From: an uncultured Candidatus Poseidoniales archaeon
Lineage (GTDB): Archaea > Thermoplasmatota > Poseidoniia > Poseidoniales > Thalassarchaeaceae
NCBI GenBank assembly: GCA_964386765.1
Contig: CAYLUC010000001.1
Location: forward strand, 4,972 to 68,971
DNA length: 64,000 nt
Direction: 5' to 3'
A program made the position numbers and the translations under genes. A model generated the notes under the pieces. It saw only the letters and a list, made by a program, of their open reading frames with translations. It was not told where the DNA came from and did not search any database. Shown here piece by piece: positions 21,101-53,158 of the stretch. The first letter of the stretch is position 1, and the number at the start of each line of letters is the position of its first letter.

Positions 21101-24100
21101 GGTGGGAAGTGGACGGGAACCTCATTTGAGGTATACGGCAAGGACTTCACATCGTGGGTCGAGGTTCATTTGCAGACCAACTCCAATTTGGGCGATGCCG
21201 ACTTGGGGTGGATACCCTTCGAGGCGTGCCCCGCCCTCTCAACTGTCGAGGTAGTGGATGAGAACTGGGGTCCCATTTGGTTCGATAGGGACCTGTCCTC
21301 GGGCAACTTGTCTATAGATGGGACGCTCAGGTTCACTGAGAACCAGTCAACGGTTGCCAACATCACTATCGACATGTATCTAGTAAAATCGAATCAGACG
21401 GGGAACGTTCCTGGTTCAGCAGCGATCGAAGAGCACTACATAGGCACTGCAGTCACCGATGAAAACGGGTCATTCAACATCAGCGGGCAGCCACAAGAAG
21501 TGATTAACCCCGGTTACGGATCCCTAGTTCTACGCACGTACCAGAATGGTTATGTTGGATCCCAGGGGATTTCATTTCCATGGAAGCTGAATGTAACTGA
21601 CAATGTGTCCATGTCCGTAAATGATCCCGAGCCCCCAGATGAGCCTAAGATTGGCATTGGGGTGAATACCACAATTACAGGCGAGATTTCCTTGTCCAGT
21701 GAACCGTTCAACGATATTACACAGCTGGACAGCCTACAGGTGGTTCTGAACTACACCACCTCTTTCGATGGCCCGGTAAGCCTCATCTCAAGCGTCGGCG
21801 CGGGTGGTTACTACGAATTCTCAGTCCCAATTGACGAATCCGAACAGGAGGGACTGATTTCTGCGACTCTGAATTTCCTTGGTTGGCATGAGGAGGACCT
21901 CAATAACGCAAGCACCCCACTGTACCACTTACGGCCCAATTCAGTCGGCTTCAACTTGAACTTGACTCCAGCCCCGAACTTGACGGTGACTCTGGAGGGT
22001 CAAGGAGAAAACAATACCATTCTGGAGGTCGATCAACCCATATTCCTCAACGGGACCGTTCTAAGCCGCTCTACTGTCCCCCTGGCACTCAATGGAACTC
22101 TGACACTGCAGATGCGAAGGTCCGCTGCAAACGGTCCATTCACCACCCTGACGTCTTGGTATCTGAATGACTCAGATTGGTCTGGGGCCTTGGGCCAATT
22201 CGCAGTTAATTGGTCATTCTCAGCTGCCGACGTCCCAATTCCTGCAGGCCTCGTAGAGATAAGGTACCAATTCGAGGCAGATGGGCTATTCGCAAAAGAT
22301 GAGTCAGTGGTTAGGGAAGAGCATGGGGTGAAGGGCTACGTTAATTTCAGCTACATCCTGAATCCTGCACCCGTCGGTTCCGATTCGGAGGTAGAGGTCA
22401 CTCTGTCTGACCACACCGGAACTTCAGTTGCGAGCTTCGTGGGAGACTACACCCTGGATTTCAATGGGGAGCTGGTATGGAACCAATCGGACCCAGAGCT
22501 ACCTAGGGTCATGGTCTTATGGAGGCCGACAATCGACGTCGAGGCAGGAGATTACCCATGGCATCTGAACTACAGCGGCTCTACATGGCTCCTGCCGAAT
22601 AGTGTCCTTGACTCGGTCAGGGTCCAAGGGAGGGCCGATGTAACCCACACACTGAGTTCAGAATGGACCCCTAGGGGACAATCGTCGTGGATCTCAGGAT
22701 TCGCTAGGGACATTAACCTGAACACCACAATTCTCGGAAATAACTCCTCAATAATCGTCAATATGGAAGTCCCCTCCGATCAACCCCCCACTCCAGACGG
22801 ACTACCTGCCCCCCCTGTGACCTACAGACTAGGGGAGCAGTGGATTGACAACACAACTGGAGAATACAACATAACATTCCAAATGCCAACCGGAGTGGGG
22901 GCAGGGGTTTACGACCTCAGGCTCATTTTAGATTTCGAGAAGAACCCTCCCTCGGGAGGGGCATACTACCTGGTTCCCGGAGCAGTGGTGCTCCAAGCAG
23001 GAATTCAGACCGAGTATGTGGTAGAGGCCGAACCTTTGCAGTCAATAGTTATCGCAGGACAGACCCTCGTTACTAATGCCACCATAACCGATGTCGAGAG
23101 CTCAAAAAGGCTGCAGAATACCACTGTCGATTTGTACTTCGATTGGGGGGGGCCTCTTCAGCAGGTTCTCAACAGCACAGTTTCGGGATCGGATGGAGTT
23201 GCCCGCTTCACTTCGACAATTCCTGCAGACGCGCCTCCTGGATACTATGACGTCCTCCTACACGCACCAGACGACATCACTGACAGTCTGACCACTCCCA
23301 ATGCAGGCAGGTGGCTAGGAAATGAGAGTACGGTCAACCTGACTGTACAAGTAGCAAGCAGCATCAGGATAGACAATGCCCCCCTTCCCGAAGTCACCGC
23401 CGGGCAATTCTTCCAACTACAAGGACAGGTCTTAGATGGGGTAGACCAGAATCGCTCAGTTTCTGGCCCCATGACCTTGGAGGTTTTCTTCCTCAATGAC
23501 CCCAGTGAGACTCTAATCACAGGGCACGTCACCGCAACGAACGGTTCGTTTTCTGTAATGGTGCCCACTGATCCATTGGGTGACGGAGTAACCAATGGAC
23601 TGAAGACCGTAGTGGTGAGTGTGGAGAACGGAAGTACCCCATTCTACCTTACAGGGACGGGCAGTGAGACTATCTTGGTTAGGGGGGTGACCCAACTGAC
23701 TGATAGAAACCCAATCTTAAACACAATAGTTGACAGGGGGACTTCAATCTCATTCGGTGCTAGGTTAGTCGAGTCAAGCGATGCAGACCGTCAGTTAGCA
23801 AACATGTCCGTCTCCGCACTATTCCACGAAACATGGCTTACCCCCGAGCAGTCAACAAACGGGCAAGGCACGGTCAACTTCACATTCACTGTCCCTCACT
23901 CTCACCCCTTGGGACTAATTCCAATAATCCTCATGTTCAATGGGTCGAATGGTTCTGACACACTACACGCATCTTCCACCATTATCAACACCATCACAGT
24001 AAGATCCCCGACCAACATATCGTTCGATCCAATTACCTCTAATCCGGCTGCCGGGGAGTTCCTAGACGTCAGTGGGACGTTGACATCCAGCAATGGTAGC

Positions 24101-27064
24101 GGCATTGTAGACAGATCAGGCAATGCCCTGAACCCCACACTAAACTTCGCCATCGACGGCGACACAAACTCCTTCTCAGTTACCGGCGGAACTGTCGATG
24201 CCAATGGGTCATGGTCGGCTAGGATATTCCTGGACCTGTCGTTCCCCCGGGGCACTCACAACATCACAGCTTCTTACACCCCCTCTGTCAACTATTACGG
24301 TGCCAGTTCGGAGGATGGGACATTCGATAGCAGGGGTTTCTCCATGCTTTCCATAATATCTCCTGCCGACTTGGATCCGGATGAGAGGGCAGTCAGGGGG
24401 GACAACATCACCTTGAACATGTCCTTGATTGACAACTCGGGTCAGTTCGTATCAGGAGGGCAGATAGATGTCTCGATAGACGGCACACCTTCTTGGTCTG
24501 GATTCACAGACGAGGATGGCATACTTACAACGTCAATTCAGATTGATGAAAACAGGGCACCAGGGCCGATGACCATTACCGCAACATTCGCCGGCTTCAA
24601 CGGCTCAACAGGATTGCTGGGCGACGAAACGTGGTCGAGAGTCGTGATACTGGCGCCTTCAGTACTAGAGGTGACTTCAGTCACGGGCTCGGCCATAGCA
24701 GGCGAGTCAGTAACATTCACTGGAACGCTACTGGATGAGCACGGTGCACCACTTGTAGAGGATGGCGAGGACAAGGGAGGGGTGGTCCACCTCTCCATAG
24801 ATGGCATAGACGTCGGTCCGTTATACACATCAATGTCCAATGCCTCGACGGGGATTTGGAGTATAACCTACGACCTTCCCCTGGATACCGACTACGGGGC
24901 CCACACATTCACTGTGGACTTCCTCGGAGGATTTACCTGGGTAGATCCAATGGGCCAAGGCGACTCCTTGAACCCCGAGTACTTCCTGCCTTCCACAGTA
25001 ACACAGCAGTTCAACGCCACACAGACCTCACAGGTAGTCCTAACCACTCCCCCTGGAGAGATAGACAGGAATGAACTCCTGCTCATTGAGGGGATGCTAA
25101 CTGATGGTGCTGGAAGGGTTCTTCCAGGCCGAGATTTGGATGTTTACATGAATGACCAATTCCTCACTTCACTGTCTGTCTCGGATAACGGAACATTCAG
25201 CCTGTTCTTCCCTGTCCCACCAGATATGCTACTAGGTCCTAGGAGCGTTAGAATCGAGTTCAGCGGAGAGGAGTTCGTAATTGGTTCAAACTCAACTACC
25301 ATCTTCACAGTTTTCGGTCCAGTCGAGGTCGAAATCGAACAACCTAATCCAGTTGCGGTCGACGATGTCCTGAAACTCAGTGGAACCGTCAAGGACAATT
25401 TACCAAATGGGTGGCTGGATAACCACTCCCTTCAGATATTCATTGATGGAATACTGATTGGGACAACTACAACAGACGAAAACGGCCAGTGGTCCTATTC
25501 ATGGATAGTTTCGGAATTCCTAGATGTTGGGCAGCATTCCCTAACTGTAATCGCTCCCGACCAAGGATACCACCGCCAGGGATCCGCTGAAGCGAACCTC
25601 ACAATAGCATATCACACCGGGATGACCCTTCAGGTGGAAAACAACGTGGTAACCAGGGGTGGGTCATGGAACCTCTCTGGCAGGCTTTTCGATGCAGACT
25701 CCGCAGGAAATCCTGGATTGGAGGGAAGGGAACTGTCCTTCCTACTTGATGGGGAGCTAATCTCCACCATCACTACCAGTATAGACGGGACATTCAGCAT
25801 AAGTCACGAACTTGGATACCTGATTTCAAGGGGCTCTCACGATGTCTCACTGGTTTTCTCGGGAGAGCAGCTGTACTTGGCAAATTCAGTGAACGCCACA
25901 GTATACACCAGGGCCGACATCAAAATTGAGATTCTGTTCCTAGAGGACGAGGTCGTCAGAAGCGATGGCAATAGGCCAATTAGGGTACTTGGCAGGATTA
26001 TTGAGATCGGAGGAGAAGGGAACACCATGGAGGAGATGGAAATTTCCCTGTACTGGGAGGACTCATTCCGGCCAAATACGAAAATCACGTGGGACGAAAC
26101 CACCGGGCAGTTCCTAGTCGAGTCCAACGCAATATCGACCATGCCCCCGGGAATTGCCAGCATGTCCTTGTTGGTCGATCCAGATTCCTCCAGATTCCTA
26201 AATGGAGGAGAGATAGATTTCGAGGTCGTAATTAAGGTGCCAGTCAACTTTGAGTTCTTGCCGGAAGAACTCTATCTCGAAGTCGGAGGTAGCTCCCTGT
26301 CCGGAAAGGTGAATGTAACAGCGACGGATCGCATACAGGTCATTGAGGGAGTCTCAATCACAGCTAGACTGGTAAACGAGACCGCCACTCACTTCACAGT
26401 GGTGGGAGTCACTGATCAGAATGGAATCTTCACCTACCAATTCGAGTCATTCCACGAGAACCACCCCCTGTGGGATAGGGATTTCTGGGGCGAACTATCT
26501 GTTGAGTTCAGCTCAGATTCCGATTTGATTGACCCAATAGACGCCGCAAGGCTCTCGCAGTTCGCCGTCGTAGACGTCGAGTACGAACCAGAGGAAGGGG
26601 CATCCCTGATGGGGCCCGCCATGACTGCTCTAGCTGCAATCGTATTGATTGGACTGGCCGTAGCAGGGGTGATGTTCGCAAGGAGAAGAAGGCAGGCTGC
26701 CATAGACGAGCTCGCAGGAGTGTTCAGCTACACTGCAGAACTGCTTGCCGCGGGAGACGAGGTCAGGGAAGCAATCTTCAACTGCTATGAGGGACTTTGC
26801 CAGGTCCTGATGAGCCGAGGATTCCTGAGGAGGGACTTCGAGACAGTCAGGGAGTTCGAGCTCGCAATAAGGAACGCTCTTCCGATTAGCGAGCAGGCAT
26901 TGCTCTCACTCGACAGGATTTTCGAAGAGGCTAGGTACTCTAGCCACGTATTGGGGGAGCCTCACAGGGAGAGCGCCCAGATGGCACTCAGCGCTGTTTT
27001 GCAGGAGATAGACCAGCTCGAAGAGGTCCCATCTAGAGAAACCTCGATAGTCCCTCAGGAATGA
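18110..27064 (+). CDS. Giant (2984 aa) transglutaminase-like surface protein: DxDxDG Ca-binding repeats, TGase-like core, Ig-like stalk, TM, DUF4129-like tail
   Basis: Many DTDGDG repeats; YWRW; GDC...MLRSAGIPARKVTGF...WVEV...GWIPFE; C-terminal TM-RRRR and ETVREF...FEEARYS. Confidence 0.85.
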   Translation: MSSFSQSTDARPDSLSKRRSAILFSVLMMLSSYSALEFASWEALASTDQDGDGLTYGLEFYINTQPQDWDTDNDGLPDGWEWQYGLNPLSPSGDNGSTGDPDGDSLSNLNEFMFGMPSNWDSTNTPNELDNGVWWNGTVPVSNWDEESAMQLIQGLGSDGADEDPWGNICFNTFDDDKDGMVDNFDNDGDGDSNCTSDDDDGDGAIDEDPNGWDTDGDGMPDGWEVANGLDPTSRTNQDGAFGDPDGDGLVNLKEFVNPAWGTRNGTTTPPTQYFRPGPLSMTATESPCNPVLQLGPGGCQIFTAEVDGITSTDPQSNDTDGDGLNDSYEALVLLTDPTSPDTDGDGIGDGVEVNGQYGDPPLASDPRNNNTDGDQFDDGEEDLNGNGVVDENETDPTRIEDDGDFDDDGIPNWEENMTCTLWNVADTDGGGINDGSELDPSHATNPCTSMQTLNLSIVDFDATNMILTLNETSSLDPTPEDWRQNGEPMGFYVSSTNGSLTGFRFTSINGDSLRGVDTDKPPDATTVLFVNFSWCWDQSLGLSNDPICDDDYFDTDGDGLADWEESTGSFGFLSDWNMSDTDGDGVNDLDEILNQTDPSNPCDNLLDTDGDGLNNYFENTTVCLVAFGSLGGNGTTDTYFTLWNESDTDNGGVTDFQEYLDGTNPQNNPNDDLNPVDTDGDGIPDTIENATGTDWRDPDTDGGGIPDGQECTSEFWDMNCLNADGNPWDPTDDIDPNMMFFEAMNTSVGVDPNITHYWRWHTYDFYTGISWGVNTSLVGNTQMFPGFSTTQGVADQQFWDGSEVLGWEISLESGALIFPGEEIIAPHNAVNYTGWTDANAGLNFSNFTRDVIVDGATIDTLFITAPQVLITQAIRDNTTEFSNSTYATDLPSEFLDKGNKAAFVNAITTTIINESGAFSAWDRVSAIQDFIINGNSTTTFLRNHNGTEVGFVDDEDDLSFWMLNNSLEGDCDQFSSLFAVMLRSAGIPARKVTGFSGGKWTGTSFEVYGKDFTSWVEVHLQTNSNLGDADLGWIPFEACPALSTVEVVDENWGPIWFDRDLSSGNLSIDGTLRFTENQSTVANITIDMYLVKSNQTGNVPGSAAIEEHYIGTAVTDENGSFNISGQPQEVINPGYGSLVLRTYQNGYVGSQGISFPWKLNVTDNVSMSVNDPEPPDEPKIGIGVNTTITGEISLSSEPFNDITQLDSLQVVLNYTTSFDGPVSLISSVGAGGYYEFSVPIDESEQEGLISATLNFLGWHEEDLNNASTPLYHLRPNSVGFNLNLTPAPNLTVTLEGQGENNTILEVDQPIFLNGTVLSRSTVPLALNGTLTLQMRRSAANGPFTTLTSWYLNDSDWSGALGQFAVNWSFSAADVPIPAGLVEIRYQFEADGLFAKDESVVREEHGVKGYVNFSYILNPAPVGSDSEVEVTLSDHTGTSVASFVGDYTLDFNGELVWNQSDPELPRVMVLWRPTIDVEAGDYPWHLNYSGSTWLLPNSVLDSVRVQGRADVTHTLSSEWTPRGQSSWISGFARDINLNTTILGNNSSIIVNMEVPSDQPPTPDGLPAPPVTYRLGEQWIDNTTGEYNITFQMPTGVGAGVYDLRLILDFEKNPPSGGAYYLVPGAVVLQAGIQTEYVVEAEPLQSIVIAGQTLVTNATITDVESSKRLQNTTVDLYFDWGGPLQQVLNSTVSGSDGVARFTSTIPADAPPGYYDVLLHAPDDITDSLTTPNAGRWLGNESTVNLTVQVASSIRIDNAPLPEVTAGQFFQLQGQVLDGVDQNRSVSGPMTLEVFFLNDPSETLITGHVTATNGSFSVMVPTDPLGDGVTNGLKTVVVSVENGSTPFYLTGTGSETILVRGVTQLTDRNPILNTIVDRGTSISFGARLVESSDADRQLANMSVSALFHETWLTPEQSTNGQGTVNFTFTVPHSHPLGLIPIILMFNGSNGSDTLHASSTIINTITVRSPTNISFDPITSNPAAGEFLDVSGTLTSSNGSGIVDRSGNALNPTLNFAIDGDTNSFSVTGGTVDANGSWSARIFLDLSFPRGTHNITASYTPSVNYYGASSEDGTFDSRGFSMLSIISPADLDPDERAVRGDNITLNMSLIDNSGQFVSGGQIDVSIDGTPSWSGFTDEDGILTTSIQIDENRAPGPMTITATFAGFNGSTGLLGDETWSRVVILAPSVLEVTSVTGSAIAGESVTFTGTLLDEHGAPLVEDGEDKGGVVHLSIDGIDVGPLYTSMSNASTGIWSITYDLPLDTDYGAHTFTVDFLGGFTWVDPMGQGDSLNPEYFLPSTVTQQFNATQTSQVVLTTPPGEIDRNELLLIEGMLTDGAGRVLPGRDLDVYMNDQFLTSLSVSDNGTFSLFFPVPPDMLLGPRSVRIEFSGEEFVIGSNSTTIFTVFGPVEVEIEQPNPVAVDDVLKLSGTVKDNLPNGWLDNHSLQIFIDGILIGTTTTDENGQWSYSWIVSEFLDVGQHSLTVIAPDQGYHRQGSAEANLTIAYHTGMTLQVENNVVTRGGSWNLSGRLFDADSAGNPGLEGRELSFLLDGELISTITTSIDGTFSISHELGYLISRGSHDVSLVFSGEQLYLANSVNATVYTRADIKIEILFLEDEVVRSDGNRPIRVLGRIIEIGGEGNTMEEMEISLYWEDSFRPNTKITWDETTGQFLVESNAISTMPPGIASMSLLVDPDSSRFLNGGEIDFEVVIKVPVNFEFLPEELYLEVGGSSLSGKVNVTATDRIQVIEGVSITARLVNETATHFTVVGVTDQNGIFTYQFESFHENHPLWDRDFWGELSVEFSSDSDLIDPIDAARLSQFAVVDVEYEPEEGASLMGPAMTALAAIVLIGLAVAGVMFARRRRQAAIDELAGVFSYTAELLAAGDEVREAIFNCYEGLCQVLMSRGFLRRDFETVREFELAIRNALPISEQALLSLDRIFEEARYSSHVLGEPHRESAQMALSAVLQEIDQLEEVPSRETSIVPQE

Positions 27065-31758: not shown

Positions 31759-33123
31759 GTGAGTGCTATGGACAGCCAAATGAAAACAATTTACGACGGC
31801 GTAATCGCAAGAGATCCGAACCAACCTGAGTTTCATCAGGCCGTTGAGGAGGTCCTGGATTGCCTAGGGCCCGTAATCGATGCACACCCCGAGTTCCTTC
31901 CTGTCGTTGAGTCGATGGTAGAGGCCGAGAGAATCATTCAGTTTCGAGTTCCATGGTATGATGACAGTGGGAATTTACAAGTCAACAGGGGATTTAGAAT
32001 TCAGATGAACAGCGCCATCGGCCCTTACAAGGGCGGACTAAGATTCCACCCATCGGTGAATCAGTCGATACTCAAGTTCCTTGCATTCGAGCAGGTGTTC
32101 AAGAACAGTCTCACGGGCCTCCCGATGGGAGGTGGAAAGGGAGGTTCAGACTTCAATCCCAAGGGGAAGTCAGACTCCGAGGTGTTGAGGTTCTGTCAAT
32201 CTTTCATGATGGAGCTATGGAGGCATATTGGAGCAGATCTGGATGTACCAGCTGGAGATATTGGAGTAGGTGGAAGGGAGGTTGGCTACCTCTTCGGAAT
32301 GTACAAGAAGCTCGCAAATGAGTTCACGGGCGTTCTTACTGGCAAGGGCAGGTCATACGGGGGCTCTCTGATACGCCCCGAGGCAACCGGGTATGGTTTG
32401 GTTTACTTTGCCAGAGAGATGCTGGCAACCAAGGGGAAGTCATTCGAAGGCGCAACTGTCTCCATCAGTGGCTCGGGAAATGTGGCCCAATTCGCCTGTG
32501 AGAAGGTGCTAGACTTGGGAGGCAAACCAGTCACGATGTCTGATTCAGGAGGATGGATTCATGACCCCTCAGGAATTGACAGGGAGAAGCTCGCATGGAT
32601 TATGGATCTCAAAAACAACAAGAGAGGGAGAATTAGCGAGTACGCGAAAAACTTCGATGGAGTGAGCTATTCAAAGTCTGAACCAGAGCCTGCTTTGAGT
32701 GGCATCTGGGGGGCCGACGTCGACGTCGCACTCCCCTGTGCTACCCAGAATGAGATAAATGCCCAAGAAGCCGAGATGCTGGTCAAGAATGGCACAATAG
32801 CTGTAGCTGAGGGGGCCAATATGCCATGCACCCCTGAAGCCGTGGAAATTTTCCTGAATAATGGGGTGTTATTCGCCCCAGGAAAGGCGAGTAATGCGGG
32901 CGGAGTCGCCACATCCGGTCTAGAAATGAGTCAGAATAGCTTGAGACTCTCGTGGACAAGAGAGGAAGTAGACCAAAGATTGGAGTCAATCATGGTCGAG
33001 ATACACAAGTCCGCCTCTGAAACAGCAGCGGAATACGGCATGCCTGGGAACTACGTGGCCGGGGCAAACATTGCCGGATTCCTAAAGGTGGCAGAAGCGA
33101 TGACTGCCCAAGGAATGATCTAG
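31759..33123 (+). CDS. gdhA: NADP-specific glutamate dehydrogenase
   Basis: [37 protein letters not shown]. Confidence 0.96.
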
Positions 33124-33863
33124 TTCTCCTCGTTGATAGACGATAGGAACCTCTTGAGGCGATCCGTTTTTGGGTTATCGATAATTGACGAGGGGCCCGT
33201 TTCTGCCACCACTCCCTGATCCATGTAAATCACCCGATCAGCTACATCTCTTGCGAAACTTATCTCATGAGTGACGACAACCATTGTCATCCCTTCGTCA
33301 GCAAGGCCTCGAATGGTCTTCAGCACGGACCCAATGAGCTCAGGGTCCAGGGCACTGGTCGGTTCATCGAAAAGCAATACCTCGGGCTTCATCGCAAGGG
33401 CTCTGGCAATGGCGACTCGTTGCTTTTGTCCGCCAGAGAGATTTCCCGGGTAAGCATCAATCCTGTCAAGCATATCGACTCTCCCCAGAACTGCCAAAGC
33501 CCGCTCTTCCGCCTCCTTCTTGCTCATTTTTCTCACCTGCCTTAGTCCTAATGTGATGTTATCCAATACCTTCAGATGGGCGAACAACTCGAACGACTGG
33601 AACACCATCCCTATCCTCGATCTCAGATTGTTAATGTCGGTATGCGGCGTGTTGACTTGCTCGCCTTTCAGGAGAACCTTCCCCCCCGTCGGCTCAATTA
33701 GTCGGTTGATACATCGAAGAACGGTGGATTTTCCGCTCCCAGAAGAGCCAATTATCGCAATAGACTCACCCTCATTGACGTCGAAAGAAATACCTCTAAC
33801 TGCATGAACTCCACCAGCGTAAATCATGTTTAGATCAACGATTTCCAGTACTTTCTCAGGCAT
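33120..33863 (-). CDS. Polar amino-acid ABC transporter ATP-binding protein (GlnQ-like)
   Basis: [39 protein letters not shown]. Confidence 0.95.
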
Positions 33864-35999
33864 TCAGTTACCCCCTGTCATACCTAGGCCCGGAATCCTA
33901 GTCTTTTCTTCCATCCACCTGAGGAAAAGTGCGAGAGTCCAGGTCACTACGAAGTAGGATATCAGCACCATCCCCCAAGCGTATGCATATTGGAACGTAC
34001 TTGCAACAATCAACTTCCCCTGACGGGTGAGCTCTGCATATCCAATAATCATAGCAAGTGATGAGTTGAGTACTAAGTTGACCATCTCATTCCCCATTGG
34101 GGGTATGCAGATCCTAATTGCTTGAGGCATTATCACTCGGCGCATGGTTTGTAGGTAGGTCAGACCAATGCTTCTTCCCGCTTCCATCTGGGCAGAAGGA
34201 ATTGCCTGAATCGCGCCCCTAATGGTTTCACACTGGTAAGCACCGGAATTGAAGCCAAGGGCGCAAATCGCGCTGATGAAAGCCGAATCATACAGCATCC
34301 CTCCCACTAGTGTTCCATAATTTGACTCAGAATAGTCATACCTAGCGAAAATGTCCGTCAGGAAATTGTGATTCTCCTCCAAATTTTCGAAGCTAAAGAC
34401 CTCCAGGCCAGGTCCTTGAATAAGTGCTCCCAGACGAACTCCGAAGTGAATAAACAAGAATTGAACAATCAAGGGAGTATTTCGGAAGAAGTCGGTATAC
34501 ACAGTCGCTATAGTGTTTAGAGGCCTCACTCTCCAAGGATTCAATGCTATATTCTTAATTCTGATTTTTGCAAATTCACCATTGTTGCTCAGGAATAGCA
34601 AACCTACGAATGTCAGAGCAATCCCAAGTAGAATCCTTAGGAAAGATTCTGGTGCACCGACGGGTAGGAAAATGTACTCAATGCCCTGTAATCCAAGATC
34701 AGTAGTTCCGGGAATCGCCGAGTATATCTGAAAAATCCCAGCTCCCAGAATGGGAACTCCCGCCATTCTGACATATCGAGGTTCGTACCGCTCCACAATA
34801 TACTTCAGAGATGTCGGGGAGGTTTTGCACATAGCGAGAGTTATCCCTAGGAAGAAACCGAGAACAATACCAAATGCGACTATCTTCAATGTTGCAATGA
34901 ATCCAGATAGGAACATTTCCTTCGTCTCATCTACGAAGACTCCGAAGTTCCCATATTCGGGAATTACGAAACCAATCTGGTCATCCTCGCCCGCATCCTC
35001 AGTCCATAGGATGGACCCTCCGTCCCCAATGGCTATTCCAGTAAATCCATTCAACATTAAAATGCCATTGAAATCGGTTTCGTTGCCAAGTGGATTGATC
35101 TGCTGCGAAACAATGGTCCCACCATTAATGCTCATTGAGAGATATCCCCCGGCTCCAGTCATCAGTAGCTTCGAGGTTGAAACAACTTCTAGCGAGGTCA
35201 ACTCGACATCCAGTGTCTCGGGACCCAGGATGTATTCGTTGGTCCCAGGGGGGTAGTGTCTTTCGAAATCTATGAGCGTCCAGACATAACCTACATCAGT
35301 ACCAGTCACTACATTGCTCATCGACATCAGAATCCTACCGTCATTTGTGATGGCATATATCCGAGTGGGGCTGTAGAATTCGACCGAGACAATTTCCGAA
35401 CCTCCCGCTCCCTCGGGAGCTTCCCTATATTCCCAGTTCTCACCTCCATCTTCGGAGAATAGTATGGTGCCATCGGAACCAACTACAATGCCTAGATCCT
35501 CATCAAGAAATGAGACGTCCAGTAGATCGCTTTCGATAGATAGACTAATCTCATTCCATCCCCCACCTTCCAGTTCCCAAATCGTCCCTTGATTACCTAC
35601 GGCTATGGCGCTCTGACTCCCTGTTAGGGATATCCCATTTACTTGCGAACCACTGGGAAGGGAAATGTCCATCCATTCGTTATCAACACTGTCTTTCAGA
35701 AGCACTAATCCTGAATCCCCTGAAATTATTAGAGATCCAAAATCAGAGTCTGAATGGTGAATGTCAGACGTCGTGGGCGAGTCCGAGGACTCCCAGGAAA
35801 CCCCGTCGTCGATGCTTTGGAGAATTACGCCTCCCGTACCGAATGCCCATACTTGTCCGTCATAGTATGCAGCTGTCAGAAGATCATCCGAGGTTCCGCT
35901 TTCAACGACTTCCCAACTGCTCGTGAAATCACTTGCTTGTCCCGGAGTTGAGCCTGCCAAAAGAAGAATCACCGCAGCCATAGTGACAATTCTGGCCAT
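33864..35999 (-). CDS. Amino-acid ABC permease with N-terminal Asp-box/YCF48-like beta-propeller
   Basis: Signal peptide, SxDxGxxW repeats, then FRNTPLIVQ and Q.EAGRSIGL...PQA permease motifs; start ATG 35999 after GGAGG. Confidence 0.88.
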   Translation of the reverse strand: MARIVTMAAVILLLAGSTPGQASDFTSSWEVVESGTSDDLLTAAYYDGQVWAFGTGGVILQSIDDGVSWESSDSPTTSDIHHSDSDFGSLIISGDSGLVLLKDSVDNEWMDISLPSGSQVNGISLTGSQSAIAVGNQGTIWELEGGGWNEISLSIESDLLDVSFLDEDLGIVVGSDGTILFSEDGGENWEYREAPEGAGGSEIVSVEFYSPTRIYAITNDGRILMSMSNVVTGTDVGYVWTLIDFERHYPPGTNEYILGPETLDVELTSLEVVSTSKLLMTGAGGYLSMSINGGTIVSQQINPLGNETDFNGILMLNGFTGIAIGDGGSILWTEDAGEDDQIGFVIPEYGNFGVFVDETKEMFLSGFIATLKIVAFGIVLGFFLGITLAMCKTSPTSLKYIVERYEPRYVRMAGVPILGAGIFQIYSAIPGTTDLGLQGIEYIFLPVGAPESFLRILLGIALTFVGLLFLSNNGEFAKIRIKNIALNPWRVRPLNTIATVYTDFFRNTPLIVQFLFIHFGVRLGALIQGPGLEVFSFENLEENHNFLTDIFARYDYSESNYGTLVGGMLYDSAFISAICALGFNSGAYQCETIRGAIQAIPSAQMEAGRSIGLTYLQTMRRVIMPQAIRICIPPMGNEMVNLVLNSSLAMIIGYAELTRQGKLIVASTFQYAYAWGMVLISYFVVTWTLALFLRWMEEKTRIPGLGMTGGN

Positions 36000-36132
36000 T
36001 CCAACCCTCCCTCCTGCCGGGAGGAGTCGAGATTCCGCTTCGTACATGGCGAGCCCTGATGTCTGGCATTCTTCCTTGGATATAGTCTAGGCGGACCGCC
36101 AATTCTAAGTCAAAACGCTCTTTGATGCAGTC

Positions 36133-37110
36133 ATGAAGGGGATTGCCGCCGTTCTAATCGTCCCGATTCTGCTGTCCTCTTCATGGGTTCTTGCGTCAGG
36201 AGAGTCAGTGTATTCAATAGGCACTATTGCAGGCGAGGAATCTTCACATTTCATAGCGCAGAACTCCGAACTCCAAGAGGTTGAGTTCGAGAACGTCCCC
36301 TTCGCCATGAGGGCTCTAAGGGACGGGGATGTTGACTATGTGATTGGCCCCCATCACTTACTCACTGATTCTGAGATGATTACGCAGTGGTCCACAATTT
36401 CAGTACATGACATGTTCGATATTTCGGATTATTTCGTGGCCATGATTAGATCCGACAGTTCTCAGGAAACTGGCAACGATGAGCTTAGGTACGCGGTCAA
36501 CTCCGCTTTAGCAGACATATTCCAAAGGGGCACTGCCTTCTCGACTCACCAACTATGGTTCGCAGACCTTCCTCAGTTACAATTCTCAAATTATGAGATG
36601 TATGAGGATGCTTGGCCCACACCAACAGAGGGCGGCACACTCCATAGGATTCTGTATGAGGATACCGACATGGGGGTATGCATGTTGGACCAAGACTCCT
36701 CGATGACCAAGATTGGCAATAATGGGGGACTAGTGGGGTTCGAGGTCGACATGGCCGAGATGATAACAAACAGTATAGCAAGCAACTATGAAGTCGAGCT
36801 GACTCTGTATAGGCACAACAGCGGAGTGTTCGAAAACGTGCTCGGTGATCTGACCGATTCCGATCTTTGTGACATTGCAATGGCTTCGATAACAACAGAT
36901 CAGATGCCCGAGGGCTTCATTTCATCATCCCCCTACCATGTTGGTGGATCAGTGTTACTCTCATCTTCTGAGTCACCCGAAATTTCCGATGTCGCAGATC
37001 TATTCAGCCCCCACAGTCCCCAAGGGGAAGGTTCCAATTTCGATTTGAGAATAATCGCGATATTCCTCCTTACGGTTTTCATAGTTAGAGAAGCAGTCAG
37101 GAAAGACTGA
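36133..37110 (+). CDS. Family-3 substrate-binding-protein-like, apparently circularly permuted, C-terminal TM anchor
   Basis: ALRDGDVD, ELRYAVNSAL...WF precede GTLHRIL, LVGFEVDM, DIAMASIT, SSPY; divergent from the permease. Confidence 0.75.
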   Translation: MKGIAAVLIVPILLSSSWVLASGESVYSIGTIAGEESSHFIAQNSELQEVEFENVPFAMRALRDGDVDYVIGPHHLLTDSEMITQWSTISVHDMFDISDYFVAMIRSDSSQETGNDELRYAVNSALADIFQRGTAFSTHQLWFADLPQLQFSNYEMYEDAWPTPTEGGTLHRILYEDTDMGVCMLDQDSSMTKIGNNGGLVGFEVDMAEMITNSIASNYEVELTLYRHNSGVFENVLGDLTDSDLCDIAMASITTDQMPEGFISSSPYHVGGSVLLSSSESPEISDVADLFSPHSPQGEGSNFDLRIIAIFLLTVFIVREAVRKD

Positions 37111-38709: not shown

Positions 38710-41700
38710 TTACCTGTCGCCCGTGAGTCTGTTTAGACGACTCTCGAAAGAGTCGTCATCAGGCTGTTCAGGAACCTCGATATTATCTGGGGGGGTATCA
38801 TCATCTTCTCTCGGTTTGGCATCGGATGCCCCATCTCGCAATTCGCTCTCCAATTTTTCTGATGAGGAAACTGGAGAGCCCCCCTTGCTCTCCGCTATGG
38901 ATGCCCTCTTCTCAATCGCTTTCTTCTCAACTGCTAGGCGGGTTTTCTCCATCATTTCCCGGCCTTCCCTGTAATTGCTAATCATCCATGATATCGCTAT
39001 AGAGGCTCCAATTACTATGGCCGCTGCTGCAATCGCCGTACTTGAATCACTTATTCCAATTTCAGCGTCCTCCCCTCCCGAGAGAACTATTCTAGCTTCA
39101 TCGTCAGAAGAATCCGCATCTTGGTCCCAGGGGAAGTCACAACTAATGGTGGCCACAAGCTCCACTGTATCTTCAACATCCGGCCTGTCAATGGATGGTT
39201 TGGGAGCCAGTGCATTTGCTGTCGTCATGTCCACAAGGTGAGTGGAAGAGTACTCTCCAGCCACAATAGAGATGAAACACTGGGTGCCCACAGGGAGCAA
39301 CTCGTGATTATCCCTTTTTGTGGAAATTTCAATTTTTTGGCTCGCACCTTGTCCATCTAACTCGAGTTGTACCAAACCAACATTCCAATCACTCCTGCGG
39401 ACTTCAAAGGTCTGATAATTTGAGGTTACTAGAATCCCCCTTGAGTCCAATAACCTAATCGAGATTTCCCTATTCCCCGGAGAAGGTGACCACTCATTAG
39501 AACTCATGTTGACCACTCCTGTAGAATTAGCCCCAACCGTGCCAGATTGCGACTCCATCATGTTGCCCATGTCATCAATGAGCAATACGGTGTAATCGAA
39601 AGATGACGTTCCATTGCCTATGGAGCAACTAGCCGAGAGTTCACCGACCGTTCCGTCGATTGCACAATTTGCATTTCTGGTAGGCGGGATAACTACAATC
39701 GATTTGTATTGCAGATATCCAGTATTGGCGTCTGAGGAAACTGAAATCTCTCCACTCCCGCTCGAAGTAGCAGGCCATGACCACCCGCCCAACTCGTTCC
39801 AGTTCAGAAGTCCCGAACTGGAGTCGGATACCGTCGAGTCGGAGTTTGAATTATGGATACCGAGCAGAGCGTGATCGCCACTGGTTGAGATAATCACTGG
39901 AGATGTGGCCCAAGAAAACCCTCCCTGTTCGGTGTCAAGGTTAATTTCACGTTGGTTCCCCTCTGAATCCTCAGCCAATATTCTGATTGTCTTCACACTG
40001 CCATCCCAGTTATCATTAGGAATCAACTCCAGTGGGACTCCAACAACCTCCCCGACGCCCAGAATCACTTCCTCTCTGCCGGAGACTGACCAATCCAGTG
40101 GGAGGCTCAGGACTTGTAGTGAGATGGTAGTGGGGGCATTGCCGAGATTCTCGAGCATCGCTAGTGGGTGTCCCCCAGAGTTGCTAACCAACCAACTCCC
40201 CTCTCCAGATAGTGAGAAATCATGTGTGACTGCAACTCTGAGTGGGAAAACAATCTCGGAAATAACGCTGGAGTCGCCCTCTCTTAGACGAAGATGTAGT
40301 TCCACTGCTCTGCCGTAGACGGCATTCTGAGGGGGGGTGATATTGAGGATGAGGGGGGCTGTCTCACCTGGGGAAAGGATAGGGAGGTCCTCCGGGTCAT
40401 CGACATCCCAGCCCGATTCACCAGTGATGAACATCGATGCATACGCTCTCGTTGGGGCATTGCCTTCCTGTACAACAGTAAGTTGAATTTCCGAACCGAG
40501 AGGGTCGATTTCTAGATTCGCTTGATCGGCCATAGCATTCCAGGATGGAACATGACCGGATTCTATTGTGAATGTGAAATTGGAAACTTCGTCACCCTGG
40601 GAAGTAGCGGTTACGGTTACAGACATTGATGAGCCACTCCAAGATTCGCTATCACTACTTGAGACAATCCTCATTTGGACCGTCTGATTAACGGCTACTC
40701 CCTCGGCAGAGTCCCCAGTAGAACTCCAATCTGTGGATGAGTCTCCATCTACCAGGTCTAGTGAAGTTGTGACGTCCAGGCTAATTTCATCTACAAGATT
40801 GCCTACGTTCTTTGCATCCACGTCGATGAATAGTGAACTACCGGGAAGAATTACGAAAACCGCTCCTTCCGGTCCTTCATAGTAATCAACTATCTGGCCA
40901 GAGTCAGATGTGGTAAGGTTCCACCTGTGGTCCTGCTTAGCCTCTAGGGACACAACATCCGATGAGGAAACATCAGGATCTCCCAACGACATGACGGTGA
41001 ATTCAATTCTAACTGGAACTCCAGCTGGGGTACTTTCGGGAAGAGTCACCGTTACAGGTACCGTTGTTAGGCTGCCCGAGGTCAACTCCACTTCATCAAT
41101 AGAGAAATCCACTGTGACTCCCGGGTCGCTGGTAATGTTTGAATCCAACAAGACTGAGTAATCTAAAGTGTATGAATCATCGCCATTGCCAGGATTTTCA
41201 AGTCTTAGAACCACTAATGACTCTTCATCCACCTCTGTCAAATATGGCTGTTCTTGCGGCGAAATCACGCTGACTGTAGATCTATAAATTTGCAATACCT
41301 CTAGTGTAATTATCAGGTAATGATCAGAAGACTCTGTACTGGTCTCTGAGAAATAATGGAATGCAGGGGACGCGTCCTCTGGTAGGTTCACTATTATCGA
41401 GCCAGAAGCCATATTCCCGGCTGAACCAGACATTACCACGGAGTCCCCTGTAACCGAAATATCACCTGTTCCTGACCACGACCACCCTGGAAGGGCCATT
41501 CCCATTTCCGAGAGTGACCAAGTTAGAGTTCCATCATCCGGGGGCATTTCAGCAATCACCGTCCACTCCAATCCATTCGCAGGGACGCTTCTGATATGCA
41601 TCCCAGTGACTACACTTGATGAGTGAAATGTTAGTTGGATTGTTTGGCATGTCTCTTCTTCGGTTCCTGTTCCCACACACATTGTTAGGGGGGTGCTAAC

Positions 41701-44394
41701 AGAGTCTCCTATGGCAGCTTCAGCTGGAACGGGGAGAGTTGCACCTAGGACCAATTCTTCCCCCGGTGCCAGAATTAGCGCAGACCTCTCAGAGCCCTCC
41801 ATATCGTATAGGCGAAGGTCGGATCCCCAGGAGGTGCTGTCCCAGGAAAGAAGAATTTGGTCTTCTTCTGCGTTTCCAAGATTCTGAACCATCAGCCATG
41901 ACTCTGCATTTTGCCCAGGAATCCCGTATCCGCTGCTTTGAGCAGTGCCATCAGGACCTCTCAGTGAGAGCCCCCTAGTTCTATTCGCTTCTATTGGCAG
42001 ATTCGCTGAAACTGACACATTGGAGTCTTCGTCAAGTGTTAGAGTCAGGGTTAGGTAACCTGAGTCCGAACCAAGGGCCTCAGGGGGCGCTTCAATCAAA
42101 AAGTCGGGGGACCAAGTCTCTCCTACTCCGATTTCGATATTGCTTATTCCCCCTGGGGTGGAATCCGACCACGACCACCCACTAGGCATTGCCGAATCAT
42201 CCACATCGAGAGTCCAGACGCCTGCCAATCTCCCAGTAGATCTCACTATGGGGCTGGCAGATTCGCTGCTTCCGGGGGACACTCTCAATGGATCGGTGGG
42301 AATCTCGAATGTTGCATTGAATGTCGGTACAATCGAAACTATCTTACTAGAAATGTCGTTATCCAATCTCGTCTGAGTAAGATTCCCGTAACTATCTAAC
42401 TCTAGGACAAACTCATGGTCTCCAAGGGGGCCAGACCATTCCACACTGAATGTGTCAAAAGAACCGGAGCCAGACGGCTCAACCGGATCTAAAGAGGTGA
42501 AAGTCCTCCGTCCAATCTCAACTCCATCCGCAAAGAGTACGGCATCAAATTCCGAGTCTATGGGCGCAGTTCCTGAGTTCTCAATGAAAGCGGTTACCAT
42601 GACATCTTCCCCTGGACTCGGAGCAGTAGGGTCCAACTCTATTCCCCCTCCGTCAAGAAGAGGCCTAACGTCGGCCCTCTCAAGTGAAACAACAGTGCTG
42701 CCAATGACGATGTCAAGAGTCATATCACCATCAATATCGGCCATAGCTGGGGCTGACCACGTCCTGTGATTCAATTCGAGCTCATTTGTCCATTCCGTAT
42801 TTATTGCCGATCCTGTACCCTCTGTACCATCAAACGCCCACAAGGATCTACCGTAGGCGACTAGGAGCTCAGGTTCGCCACTTCCATCAATGTCCATCCA
42901 TATCGGAGGGGACACCGCAATCTCGTCATTGGGCGCGCCGCTGCTTTGTTCCAGATCTCGATGCCAAGCTTCTTCGGGACTTGTGCCATCAACGTCATGG
43001 CAACCTGCAACTCCGTGTCTGGCAGTAGCAGTCTGCCACCATGTGACCCAGCATACCCTATTTATCGTCCCGTCATCATCTGTGTCAATGACAATCGGAG
43101 GAGCATCAGCATAACCATTTTCAGCTTCGAAGGACCATATTTCTTCACCGGTTCCTATTTCCAGACCTCTATATTCGGCACCATCTACACTTCCAGAACC
43201 ATCCGCATCCGTCGGTATCGTCACGACGATTTCCGGAGATGAGTCGGAATCTAGGTTGGCTACTACGGGTCCTGGTAGTCTGATATGGGGTGCATCAGAG
43301 TCCCCATCGATATTATTCAAACTGAGGCCATCCCAGCCAGAGTCTCCTGTGACCGAGTCAAGTCTCCAAACCCACATCCCTCCGTTACTGTATTCTGTAG
43401 TGGTCAAGACTACGTATCCTGTATTGTCATCAGTCTGTGCAAATGCAGGGTCAGAGGGATGGCTACCCTTGTCCAGAGTCTTCTCCCACATGGTCGTGGG
43501 TGTCCCAGTGGGGGGGAGGTTGAGGGCAATAATGACTGGGTCGCCACTATTTTCATTTACAGCAGCAATCACTATTTCCGCATCCCCATCGAGGTCTAAG
43601 TCAGCAAGTAAGGGTTGCGCTGTAGGTTTGTGCCCCCCAAAGAACTCACTAACATATGCCCCCACATCGCTACTGATCATCAGATCGTCGTCTTCCCATG
43701 TCCAGACCGGTTGTTGGGAGCTCCCGGCCCCGGCATTCCACCCCGTAACAGAACAATAGAGCCGAGGGGACCAGGCATCAACATGAAGAGTGCCTCCTTG
43801 GTCGTATGCCACAATGACCTCGGGCCTTCCGTCGTCATCCAAATCAACCACGACAGGTGACGCCTTAACTTTCTCAGTAGCTCCTAGGTTTACTTCCCAA
43901 GCCAACTCCGAGTCTTCACCCTCGACAATCTTCAGGAAACTCTCATCTGATGTTGTGTCAGTCTGAATTAGGATAGTGTATAGGGAATCCCCTCCGCACC
44001 TTTCCTCAGAAGACGAGTCGCTAGTCAGTGAAGAAGAGAAATCAGCGATAGGCGTTCCTAGTGAATCAGTTCCAATTGGGTCAGAGCCAAAATCCCAATT
44101 TATCACTGGGTCGACGATTGATAGTAGCCCTCCTGTGGCAGAATCAGTGGAATGGACATGGTGGGGCGGAACTGATGACCTATCGGGCGTTCTGCCCGGT
44201 TGCGGCCATGGCTGATCCCCATCAGACCAAGGTTCATCTCCAGAAGTCATCATTCCTTCTGAGCCCCTATTCAGTGCGACTCCATCCGCCATCATGATGA
44301 GTATGGGGGATAAAGACATGACTAGCATTATCGATACGGCCAAGGCCGCACCAATCTTATCGGAGAGGGGTTTGGGGCCAGCATCCACTGTCAT
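38710..44394 (-). CDS. Giant surface protein: FG-GAP/VCBS beta-propeller, CARDB and NEW3-like Ig domains, C-terminal TM
   Basis: Repeated P.VxDLDxDGxxE motifs, FIENSG and VQNLGN Ig motifs, TM followed by charged tail; start uncertain (44394 or 44448). Confidence 0.82.
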   Translation of the reverse strand: MTVDAGPKPLSDKIGAALAVSIMLVMSLSPILIMMADGVALNRGSEGMMTSGDEPWSDGDQPWPQPGRTPDRSSVPPHHVHSTDSATGGLLSIVDPVINWDFGSDPIGTDSLGTPIADFSSSLTSDSSSEERCGGDSLYTILIQTDTTSDESFLKIVEGEDSELAWEVNLGATEKVKASPVVVDLDDDGRPEVIVAYDQGGTLHVDAWSPRLYCSVTGWNAGAGSSQQPVWTWEDDDLMISSDVGAYVSEFFGGHKPTAQPLLADLDLDGDAEIVIAAVNENSGDPVIIALNLPPTGTPTTMWEKTLDKGSHPSDPAFAQTDDNTGYVVLTTTEYSNGGMWVWRLDSVTGDSGWDGLSLNNIDGDSDAPHIRLPGPVVANLDSDSSPEIVVTIPTDADGSGSVDGAEYRGLEIGTGEEIWSFEAENGYADAPPIVIDTDDDGTINRVCWVTWWQTATARHGVAGCHDVDGTSPEEAWHRDLEQSSGAPNDEIAVSPPIWMDIDGSGEPELLVAYGRSLWAFDGTEGTGSAINTEWTNELELNHRTWSAPAMADIDGDMTLDIVIGSTVVSLERADVRPLLDGGGIELDPTAPSPGEDVMVTAFIENSGTAPIDSEFDAVLFADGVEIGRRTFTSLDPVEPSGSGSFDTFSVEWSGPLGDHEFVLELDSYGNLTQTRLDNDISSKIVSIVPTFNATFEIPTDPLRVSPGSSESASPIVRSTGRLAGVWTLDVDDSAMPSGWSWSDSTPGGISNIEIGVGETWSPDFLIEAPPEALGSDSGYLTLTLTLDEDSNVSVSANLPIEANRTRGLSLRGPDGTAQSSGYGIPGQNAESWLMVQNLGNAEEDQILLSWDSTSWGSDLRLYDMEGSERSALILAPGEELVLGATLPVPAEAAIGDSVSTPLTMCVGTGTEEETCQTIQLTFHSSSVVTGMHIRSVPANGLEWTVIAEMPPDDGTLTWSLSEMGMALPGWSWSGTGDISVTGDSVVMSGSAGNMASGSIIVNLPEDASPAFHYFSETSTESSDHYLIITLEVLQIYRSTVSVISPQEQPYLTEVDEESLVVLRLENPGNGDDSYTLDYSVLLDSNITSDPGVTVDFSIDEVELTSGSLTTVPVTVTLPESTPAGVPVRIEFTVMSLGDPDVSSSDVVSLEAKQDHRWNLTTSDSGQIVDYYEGPEGAVFVILPGSSLFIDVDAKNVGNLVDEISLDVTTSLDLVDGDSSTDWSSTGDSAEGVAVNQTVQMRIVSSSDSESWSGSSMSVTVTATSQGDEVSNFTFTIESGHVPSWNAMADQANLEIDPLGSEIQLTVVQEGNAPTRAYASMFITGESGWDVDDPEDLPILSPGETAPLILNITPPQNAVYGRAVELHLRLREGDSSVISEIVFPLRVAVTHDFSLSGEGSWLVSNSGGHPLAMLENLGNAPTTISLQVLSLPLDWSVSGREEVILGVGEVVGVPLELIPNDNWDGSVKTIRILAEDSEGNQREINLDTEQGGFSWATSPVIISTSGDHALLGIHNSNSDSTVSDSSSGLLNWNELGGWSWPATSSGSGEISVSSDANTGYLQYKSIVVIPPTRNANCAIDGTVGELSASCSIGNGTSSFDYTVLLIDDMGNMMESQSGTVGANSTGVVNMSSNEWSPSPGNREISIRLLDSRGILVTSNYQTFEVRRSDWNVGLVQLELDGQGASQKIEISTKRDNHELLPVGTQCFISIVAGEYSSTHLVDMTTANALAPKPSIDRPDVEDTVELVATISCDFPWDQDADSSDDEARIVLSGGEDAEIGISDSSTAIAAAAIVIGASIAISWMISNYREGREMMEKTRLAVEKKAIEKRASIAESKGGSPVSSSEKLESELRDGASDAKPREDDDTPPDNIEVPEQPDDDSFESRLNRLTGDR

Positions 44395-44535
44395 CAGAGT
44401 CCAATTTGGTTTTCGTAACCCACTTGAACGTTCGCCCCATATTCTCACTCAGACCTACGGTCTGAGCCAATATGAGGTCCCGCCAGCAATTTTTGCTCGT
44501 CCGTTGTGCTTATACAGGGGTGGCAGGTCGCCGGG

Positions 44536-53050: not shown

Positions 53051-53158
53051 AATTGACTCTATAATATCGCCATTATTCAATACAAATATATCTCCTAATG
53101 GCACTAATCGCATTTTCGGACCAATTGATTCATAATAGTGACAAGTCAAGCGCATTGC

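Follow-up and report, generated by a model that had tools for sequence, protein, structure and literature searches.

Swapped halves in a solute-binding protein of Poseidoniia archaea: a probable natural circular permutation of the family-3 fold

In a stretch of 64,000 nucleotides from an uncultured Candidatus Poseidoniales archaeon (assembly GCA_964386765.1, contig CAYLUC010000001.1; hereafter the window), the open reading frame (ORF) at exactly 36133..37110 on the forward strand, with an ATG start and 325 amino acids (aa), encodes a family-3 solute-binding protein (SBP) whose two halves stand in swapped order along the chain. The swapped order and the exact breakpoint are direct results of our analysis, and the explanation that we hold with high confidence is that the protein is a genuine and functional circular permutant of the type II, or cluster F, binding proteins covered by the Pfam family SBP_bac_3. 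Moreover, relatives with other cut points were found; that one junction goes with several cut points, in archaea that are abundant worldwide, is the main interest of the finding.

The preliminary description of this gene had listed the conserved family-3 motifs and read their arrangement as an exchange of the two halves. All the listed motifs are present in the translation of 36133..37110 in the order that it gave, and four independent searches, namely NCBIfam, phmmer against the PDB, a canonical profile of our own, and a family profile against the PDB, agree on the swap. In the NCBIfam search, residues 31-144 match positions 131-242 of the 243-position ArtI profile, and residues 194-304 match positions 57-161 of the 266-position cystine-SBP profile. 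With phmmer, residues 196-290 align to 28-115 of AncQR (4zv1) and residues 35-144 to 129-232 of the same chain. The canonical profile has 224 positions and was built from nine canonical-order domains of six proteins (P0015, P0016, P0018, P0019, P0021 and P0024). On it the native protein gives two half-domain matches in reverse order, as had been anticipated: residues 28-147 cover positions 109-223 (32.6 bits, E 4.6e-11) and residues 195-291 cover positions 17-106 (27.7 bits, E 1.4e-9), and the two matches neither overlap on the profile nor leave a gap in it. When residues 161-295 and 24-150 are re-joined in silico, a single match over positions 17-223 is obtained with 71.6 bits, against 32.6 and 27.7 bits in the native order, so that the full-length match foreseen for the re-joined halves does appear; the doubled mature sequence likewise contains a central full-length match of 64.1 bits.

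The breakpoint is seen most sharply with the family profile A2, made from 52 sequences. Against AncQR, profile positions 173-288 align to chain residues 9-118 and positions 30-139 to residues 119-232 (E 3.1e-39), and because the swap is exact at 118|119, the new chain ends are direct neighbours in the canonical chain, just as had been supposed. None of the 60 best of the 177 PDB matches to A2 (E <= 1e-5) is full-length and co-linear, and each matched stretch among these 60 corresponds to one half of the profile. The Pfam model SBP_bac_3 (PF00497) itself reaches 35.7 bits against a gathering score of 26.4, with residues 189-291 as its best stretch, and in a protein-atlas comparison the nearest clusters by features are SBP_bac_3 clusters of Thermoplasmatota. 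The co-linear order from N-terminal strand to C-terminal helix, which members of cluster F have, is absent from our protein, and judged by its sequence it is best regarded as a topological variant of SBP_bac_3 and no standard member.

The layout of the chain, all on the forward strand, follows from these matches and from hydropathy. Under the criterion of a mean Kyte-Doolittle value of at least 1.6 over 15 aa, the protein has exactly two hydrophobic stretches, residues 1-23 and 303-322, which fit the signal peptide and the C-terminal transmembrane segment of the preliminary description. The putative signal peptide occupies 36133..36201. The first segment, residues 28-147 (36214..36573), is the canonical second half as defined by the profile matches above, and according to the textbook type II fold we take it to make up the greater part of lobe II together with the second hinge strand, and to add the C-terminal helix to lobe I. 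The junction, residues 148-194 (36574..36714), lies between the two profile matches and links the old C-terminus to the old N-terminus; it contains a conserved W-P-T-P-T-E-G-G-T-L followed by the first strand (residues 175-194), where the match to the canonical profile is poor. Both W161 and P162 are conserved, P162 being invariant in 52 of 52 sequences. The second segment, residues 195-291 (36715..37005), is the canonical first half and ends in V-A-D-L; presumably it supplies lobe I with its N-terminal part and lobe II with its first strand and turn, together with the first hinge strand between them. A stalk (residues 292-302), the hydrophobic anchor (303-322), a basic tail and the stop codon complete the gene (37006..37110). 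The ectodomain is very acidic, with 47 Asp and Glu against 8 Lys and Arg.

Read as a permutant, the mature chain would begin in the middle of lobe II near canonical position 109, run through the rest of this lobe and the second hinge strand to the C-terminal helix of lobe I, and pass through a linker of about 20-45 residues from the old C-terminus to the canonical N-terminus; it would then complete lobe I, cross the first hinge strand and stop once the first strand and the turn of lobe II are formed. The signal peptide would direct its export, and the C-terminal hydrophobic anchor, which emerges from lobe II because of the permutation, would hold it at the cell surface. There it would capture a small solute and hand it to the importer encoded next to it, a dimer of a propeller-fused GlnP-type permease with a dimer of a GlnQ-type ATPase. 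Such a transport role is the most likely one; the gene's partners are described below.

To see how the two halves fit each other, residues 24-150 and 160-296 were folded as separate chains, each with its own slice of alignment A2. The two-chain model reaches an interface score (ipSAE) of 0.83 (0.87, 0.83 and 0.81 in the runs) against 0.00 for the best of three controls, a mark that is attained by 116 of 157 solved complexes and by 2 of 215 mismatched pairs. At least 94% of the contacts, about 270 in number, are common to the runs, and the predicted local distance difference test (pLDDT) of the partner is at least 83. The contacts of top confidence join residues 121-126 in the old C-terminal helix with 210-215 in the helix after the V-G-F-E-V-D strand; others of this class join 101-105 with 249-250 and 262-269, and 69-70 with 276. 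Going by the textbook type II fold, we take the contacts of 121-126 with 210-215 and those of 101-105 with 249-269 to lie in lobe I, and those of 69-70 with 276 in lobe II. With predicted contacts in both lobes, each half would contribute to either lobe, the arrangement of an ordinary flytrap, and the protein would fold as a single two-lobed Venus flytrap. A pair of independent half-domains was considered as well and was ruled out, as each lobe needs both halves in the contacts of the two-chain model.

The protein belongs to a large family, which is poorly visible to single-sequence searches: these returned few relatives, 9 (E <= 1e-3) in one search and 16 in another. With the profile A1, built from 12 co-linear relatives, 472 proteins were found at E <= 1e-3 among 8000 scored candidates. 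Among the matches listed (the best 120 of the 472), all have E < 1e-100 and most are 299-337 aa long and come from metagenomes, the exceptions in length being P0025 (695 aa), P0022 (450 aa) and the truncated P0008 (222 aa). The source names among these listed matches include Candidatus Poseidoniales, Poseidoniia and Thermoplasmatota archaeon; the product names include 'transporter substrate-binding domain-containing protein' and 'ABC-type amino acid transport substrate-binding protein', and in none of the listed records does the name mention a permutation. The SBP_bac_3 model PF00497.25 has 132 positions, and it gives long proteins as compressed matches and scores permuted proteins weakly, for example with 23.1 bits, below the cut-off, in a genome scan; therefore routine annotation may under-call the family.

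The position of the cut was classified for 133 of the proteins retrieved. As many as 120 are single units of the type found in the window, with the break at profile positions 106-109 (type A), all 120 with a hydrophobic C-terminus and 117 of them with a hydrophobic N-terminus, and one more, P0025, has two type A units in tandem. Three were classed as type B, one of which, P0008, is merely a truncated type A gene call, and one (P0020) as type C; there are further two canonical single domains, four canonical tandems, one protein with one half alone above the threshold (P0017) and one 52-aa fragment without a match. As to the distribution, full-length type A proteins occur in 9 of 81 sampled genomes of the same order, and matches of any kind in 25 of the 81, all in a single family (24 of 39 genomes of family f1 together with the window's own genome, against 0 of 2 in f2 and 0 of 39 in f3). 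Among 251 genomes of the phylum, full-length type A was also found in a second order of the same class (two f4 genomes, and one partial match), and the rest of this sample, except for G176, gave nothing beyond the half-length matches typical of canonical proteins. In subclades of MGIIb, within Marine Group II (MGII), binding proteins of L-amino-acid and of branched-chain ABC transporters have been reported (Tully 2019, PMC6336850), on whose topology the accessible part of that article does not remark.

Besides type A, the same fold is found cut at other points. In type B the break lies at about 186-191, so that the last helix comes first (P0014 and P0023, with P0017 added at a looser threshold); in type C it lies at about 33-38 (P0020 and a protein on contig C6 of the window's own genome). 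The type C protein of this genome (G000:C6:51905-55147; L006 7963-11151) carries the permuted domain in the N-terminal part of a 1062-aa chain that also has a LivJ-like Peripla_BP_6/ANF_receptor domain, and it is followed by a 1335-aa Liv-type permease and two ATPases. This type C pattern in frames of about 1000 aa is present in all 25 matching genomes of the 81 sampled from the order. Type D, with the break at about 90-93 near the first hinge, comes from G176, in another family of the phylum, and has an N-terminal anchor; its linker is unrelated, so it is probably an independent permutation. The domain also occurs in canonical order within large proteins (P0015 and on G079:C19), the flanks in P0015 resembling those of P0020, and the window's genome holds two distant canonical-order family-3 proteins as well, on C18 and C2.

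Types A, B and C are tied together by a homologous junction, seen in the main branch of type A, in P0023 for type B, and in P0020 and the C6 protein for type C: approximately W-F-x-G, then a stretch V-V-L-T-D-D-T-D-x-x-T-A-T, then Y-P-x-P-x-E-G-x-L. In the canonical-order inserted domains just the two outer ends of this junction are seen, at the termini of the domain itself. For a tree (LG+G4 with ultrafast bootstrap), all domains were returned to canonical order by script. Types A, B (P0014 and P0023) and C then group with the canonical-order inserted domains with support of 87-100, type C and the inserted canonical domains forming a clade with support 100; outside this group fall the bacterial-looking canonical domains, the canonical proteins of the window's genome, type D and P0017. 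The order in which the cut types arose is not resolved by this tree of un-permuted domains, with internal supports of 46-47.

The preliminary description had suggested trimming of a tandem SBP duplication as the origin of the swap and had pointed to tandem forms as something to be sought. They do exist: P0025 consists of two nearly identical permuted type A units in tandem, separated by an acidic, cysteine-rich spacer of about 80 aa. We infer that the permutation most likely came about in an ancestor of Poseidoniia through tandem duplication and trimming of the ends, with the same junction later re-cut elsewhere. Such an origin is consistent with P0025 and with the junction linker common to three cut types, and tandem forms such as P0025 are plausible intermediates. 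The idea of one ancestral junction that was later re-cut fits the shared linker and the tree, which are no proof of that history. Some details of these relatives may be added. P0022 starts with the same spacer as that of P0025 and would seem to be the rear unit of a similar tandem, truncated where its contig ends. The type B relatives P0017 (303 aa) and P0014 (363 aa) have Ser/Thr-rich stalks, and P0017 ends in a GPI-like hydrophobic tail that looks eukaryote-like by eye. The type D protein is a 287-aa frame (L022 1035-1895, forward strand; G176:C2) with a short unrelated linker.

The gene is accompanied by the partners of a polar-amino-acid-type ABC importer, as is usual for SBP_bac_3 members. 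Divergent from it lies a 727-aa permease (33864..36047, reverse strand), composed of a signal or anchor sequence, a Ycf48/BNR-like beta-propeller ectodomain and a GlnP/HEQRo-type membrane domain, with matches to Pfam BPD_transp_1 (E 3.8e-18) and PSII_BNR (E 8.6e-15) and to NCBIfam GlnP (E 4e-34). Directly downstream of the permease is a GlnQ-like ABC ATPase of 247 aa (33120..33863, reverse strand; Pfam ABC_tran, E 5.2e-39), and convergent with the latter, as context only, a glutamate dehydrogenase (GDH) gene (31759..33123, forward strand; Pfam ELFV_dehydrog, E 5.9e-90). The order HD protein, GDH, ATPase, permease, permuted gene and SAICAR synthase is kept in seven of seven orthologous loci, one of which (L014) ends at a contig end. 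Farther away, six distant loci have binding proteins that are 24-28% identical to ours, and in five of them (L016, L017, L018, L020 and L021) the ATPase and the propeller-permease are found in the same divergent arrangement. The ATPase of the distant loci is 67% identical where complete; in L016, L018 and L020, where the parts of the permease were separately aligned, its membrane domain is 46-52% and its propeller 26-28% identical, and in L017 and L021 one alignment over most of the permease gives 30-31%. On these comparisons ATPase, permease and permuted gene are a conserved module in which the binding protein evolves fastest. The propeller ectodomain of the permease measures about 330 aa, and its fusion is kept in L016-L018, L020 and L021. 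The sixth distant locus, L019, is partial: beside a partial ATPase match it has a 246-aa frame (5896-6633, forward strand) with the end of the first segment and the second segment of type A, which may be a truncated or decaying copy.

Some of our results weigh against a functional, amino-acid-binding permutant, and they concern the fold and the ligand. As to the fold, a single flytrap is deduced from sequence logic together with the two-chain model, and the high score of this model may reflect the abundance of canonical binding proteins among solved structures, in which case it expresses likeness and is no proof. Moreover, the model does not tell a chain folded on itself from a domain-swapped dimer: the halves fit, be it within one chain or between two. 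The permuted chain might thus fail to close on itself, and two chains might exchange halves to form a dimer with two flytraps, for which the existence of tandem two-unit proteins such as P0025 could also be cited. We consider this quite improbable, as the roughly 47 residues of the junction (148-194) are ample to link the old termini within one chain and are under purifying selection (ratio of non-synonymous to synonymous substitution rates, dN/dS, of 0.03-0.17 for pairs with finite dS > 0.1), and as the junction recurs in three cut types as well as within large single-chain proteins that carry the domain as an insert, where swapping is less plausible. Still less credible, to the point of being negligible, is that the gene has no folded product, being what is left of a tandem pair in decay or else an artefact of assembly or gene calling. 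The poor profile match of the first strand region (residues 175-194) and the truncated look of L019 could be taken that way. Against this stand the seven orthologous loci, 72-87% identical, in metagenome-assembled genomes labelled Poseidoniales, Euryarchaeota, Methanobacteriota or Thermoplasmatota: together with the gene of the window they make eight genes, all of 325 codons without stops or indels, with Nei-Gojobori dN/dS of 0.04-0.12 in every pair with finite dS, comparably low in each half. Both halves are under purifying selection. The same eight independent assemblies with their intact frame and low dN/dS rule out an assembly artefact or a pseudogene; moreover the family counts 472 matching proteins, 120 of the 133 classified are type A, and the breakpoint is exact without loss of residues.

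As to the ligand, the preliminary description had called the protein an amino-acid binding protein, and the amino-acid pocket which this implies is not borne out. In the 43 main-branch type A sequences of A2 the canonical contacts are kept throughout (100%), namely G-T-T at 34-36, D73 and R258, together with D185 and Y-P-P-F-E. In the clade of the window's protein (n = 7) one finds instead E35, E, D or G at 36, P73 followed by H-H, M, I or V at 258, L185, and D-S-S-M-T at the place of Y-P-P-F-E, and the replacements E35, P73, H74 and H75 are conserved in seven of seven members. The phmmer alignments agree, the Arg position of GlnBP being Met and the Asp position of AncQR being Pro in our protein. 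From the structures of GlnBP, HisJ and LAOBP we take the Arg of T-x-x-R, the Asp that follows the lobe II strand, and G-T-T/S to be the positions that bind the alpha-carboxylate and alpha-ammonium groups, and this clade has none of these conserved contacts. With all of them changed, amino-acid binding is therefore unsupported for the window's protein. The main branch probably binds a polar amino acid, with which the adjoining GDH gene is in keeping, and the clade of the window's protein probably has a different ligand, as the replaced residues suggest.

It could even be that this clade, though a real permuted flytrap, is no amino-acid transport receptor at all, and that it receives another solute, serves the permease as a ligand-free or accessory partner, or acts as a sensor. 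This we regard as somewhat unlikely. It draws on the substitution of every canonical alpha-amino and alpha-carboxylate contact by residues conserved 7/7, and on the contrast between the binding protein (24-28% identical to the main branch) and its ATPase (67%) and permease membrane domain (46-52%). The unchanged three-gene arrangement and the strong selection on both halves speak for a transport receptor, and the Pfam scans of the neighbouring ORFs revealed nothing to suggest a signalling partner. A functional permutant of the cluster F fold remains our preferred explanation, with a change of ligand that the alignment makes probable for this clade. In a wider reading, which we offer tentatively and rate as less likely than not, the Poseidoniia would hold a series of permutations of one fold, with cuts selected by the exit of the tether or host protein and with a new non-amino-acid pocket in the clade of the window's protein. 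In such a series the junction may have been re-cut at no fewer than three places, at about 107 in the stand-alone anchored receptors, at about 188 in others and at about 35 in the giant LivJ-type receptors, with apparently one return to canonical order, and the cut sites may set where the tether or the host protein exits the flytrap relative to the propeller-bearing permease.

The proteins of this class serve as textbook examples of how a ligand drives domain closure, and many biosensors are built on them, with usable cut or insertion sites coming from laborious screening. The present family, large, natural and under purifying selection, accepts cuts within lobe II, beside the second hinge strand and within lobe I, and is evidence of which re-wirings preserve function. 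It is also a rare record of natural circular permutation, in which tandem forms, a common junction and several cut sites occur within one clade, and in one lineage, that of the window's protein, the pocket appears from its residues to be remodelled toward a different solute. As standard domain models score the protein weakly and piecemeal, the abundant MGII archaea may therefore have under-annotated uptake systems.

Compared with known systems, the protein is closest to the canonical cluster F proteins (AncQR 4ZV1, GlnBP 1GGG/1WDN, ArtJ 2PVU, HisJ and LAOBP), with which it shares homology over both halves (4zv1, E 3.1e-39) and the same types of partner, a GlnP-like permease and a GlnQ-like ATPase. 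It differs from them in having its chain rotated at AncQR 118|119 and held at the membrane by an anchor at the C-terminus; their ligand contacts (G-T-T, Asp and Arg) are retained in the main branch of the family and absent in our protein's clade. In the GlnPQ-type importers (PDB 6h30 and 4kqp), family-3 domains are likewise placed at the membrane by a GlnP-type permease, and tandem repeats occur, but these domains keep the canonical order and belong to the permease chain itself, at its N-terminus, whereas our protein is a separate permuted gene product with its own C-terminal anchor and the permease N-terminus carries a beta-propeller instead.

For a natural circular permutation of a family-3 or type II amino-acid binding protein, no paper was found in the main texts of open-access articles and of bioRxiv preprints. 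The closest published natural precedent that we found is TpMglB-2 (Tp0684) of Treponema pallidum, 'Type Ic / Cluster Bc', a natural and functional circular permutant of an ABC binding protein (PMC4990184). Its homologues are mostly tethered, and tethering is tentatively raised by the authors as a reason for the topology, according to the accessible part of the article (PMC4990184). It serves as an analogue only: TpMglB-2 is of another structural class, the sugar-binding Type I, and has no sequence homology to our protein; its cut lies in the N-lobe and adds a fourth hinge crossing, and as far as that part goes a single cut type is described (PMC4990184). In our searches all significant matches of the protein are to family-3 or type II sequences, and no Type I (MglB-like) homology was seen. 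A closer fold but a man-made case is the circularly permuted GltI, a family-3 protein, in the sensor R-ncp-iGluSnFR1, which by the accessible text of a review still senses glutamate (PMC6335823). It shows that the fold tolerates re-cutting, but it sits within a fluorescent protein and is no part of a transporter (PMC6335823).

Elsewhere in the window there are three very long ORFs, at 18110-27064 (forward strand, 2984 aa), 38710-44448 (reverse strand, 1912 aa) and 53138-60367 (forward strand, 2409 aa). The product of the 1912-aa ORF resembles a giant surface protein in being acidic and in having a hydrophobic stretch close to the C-terminus.

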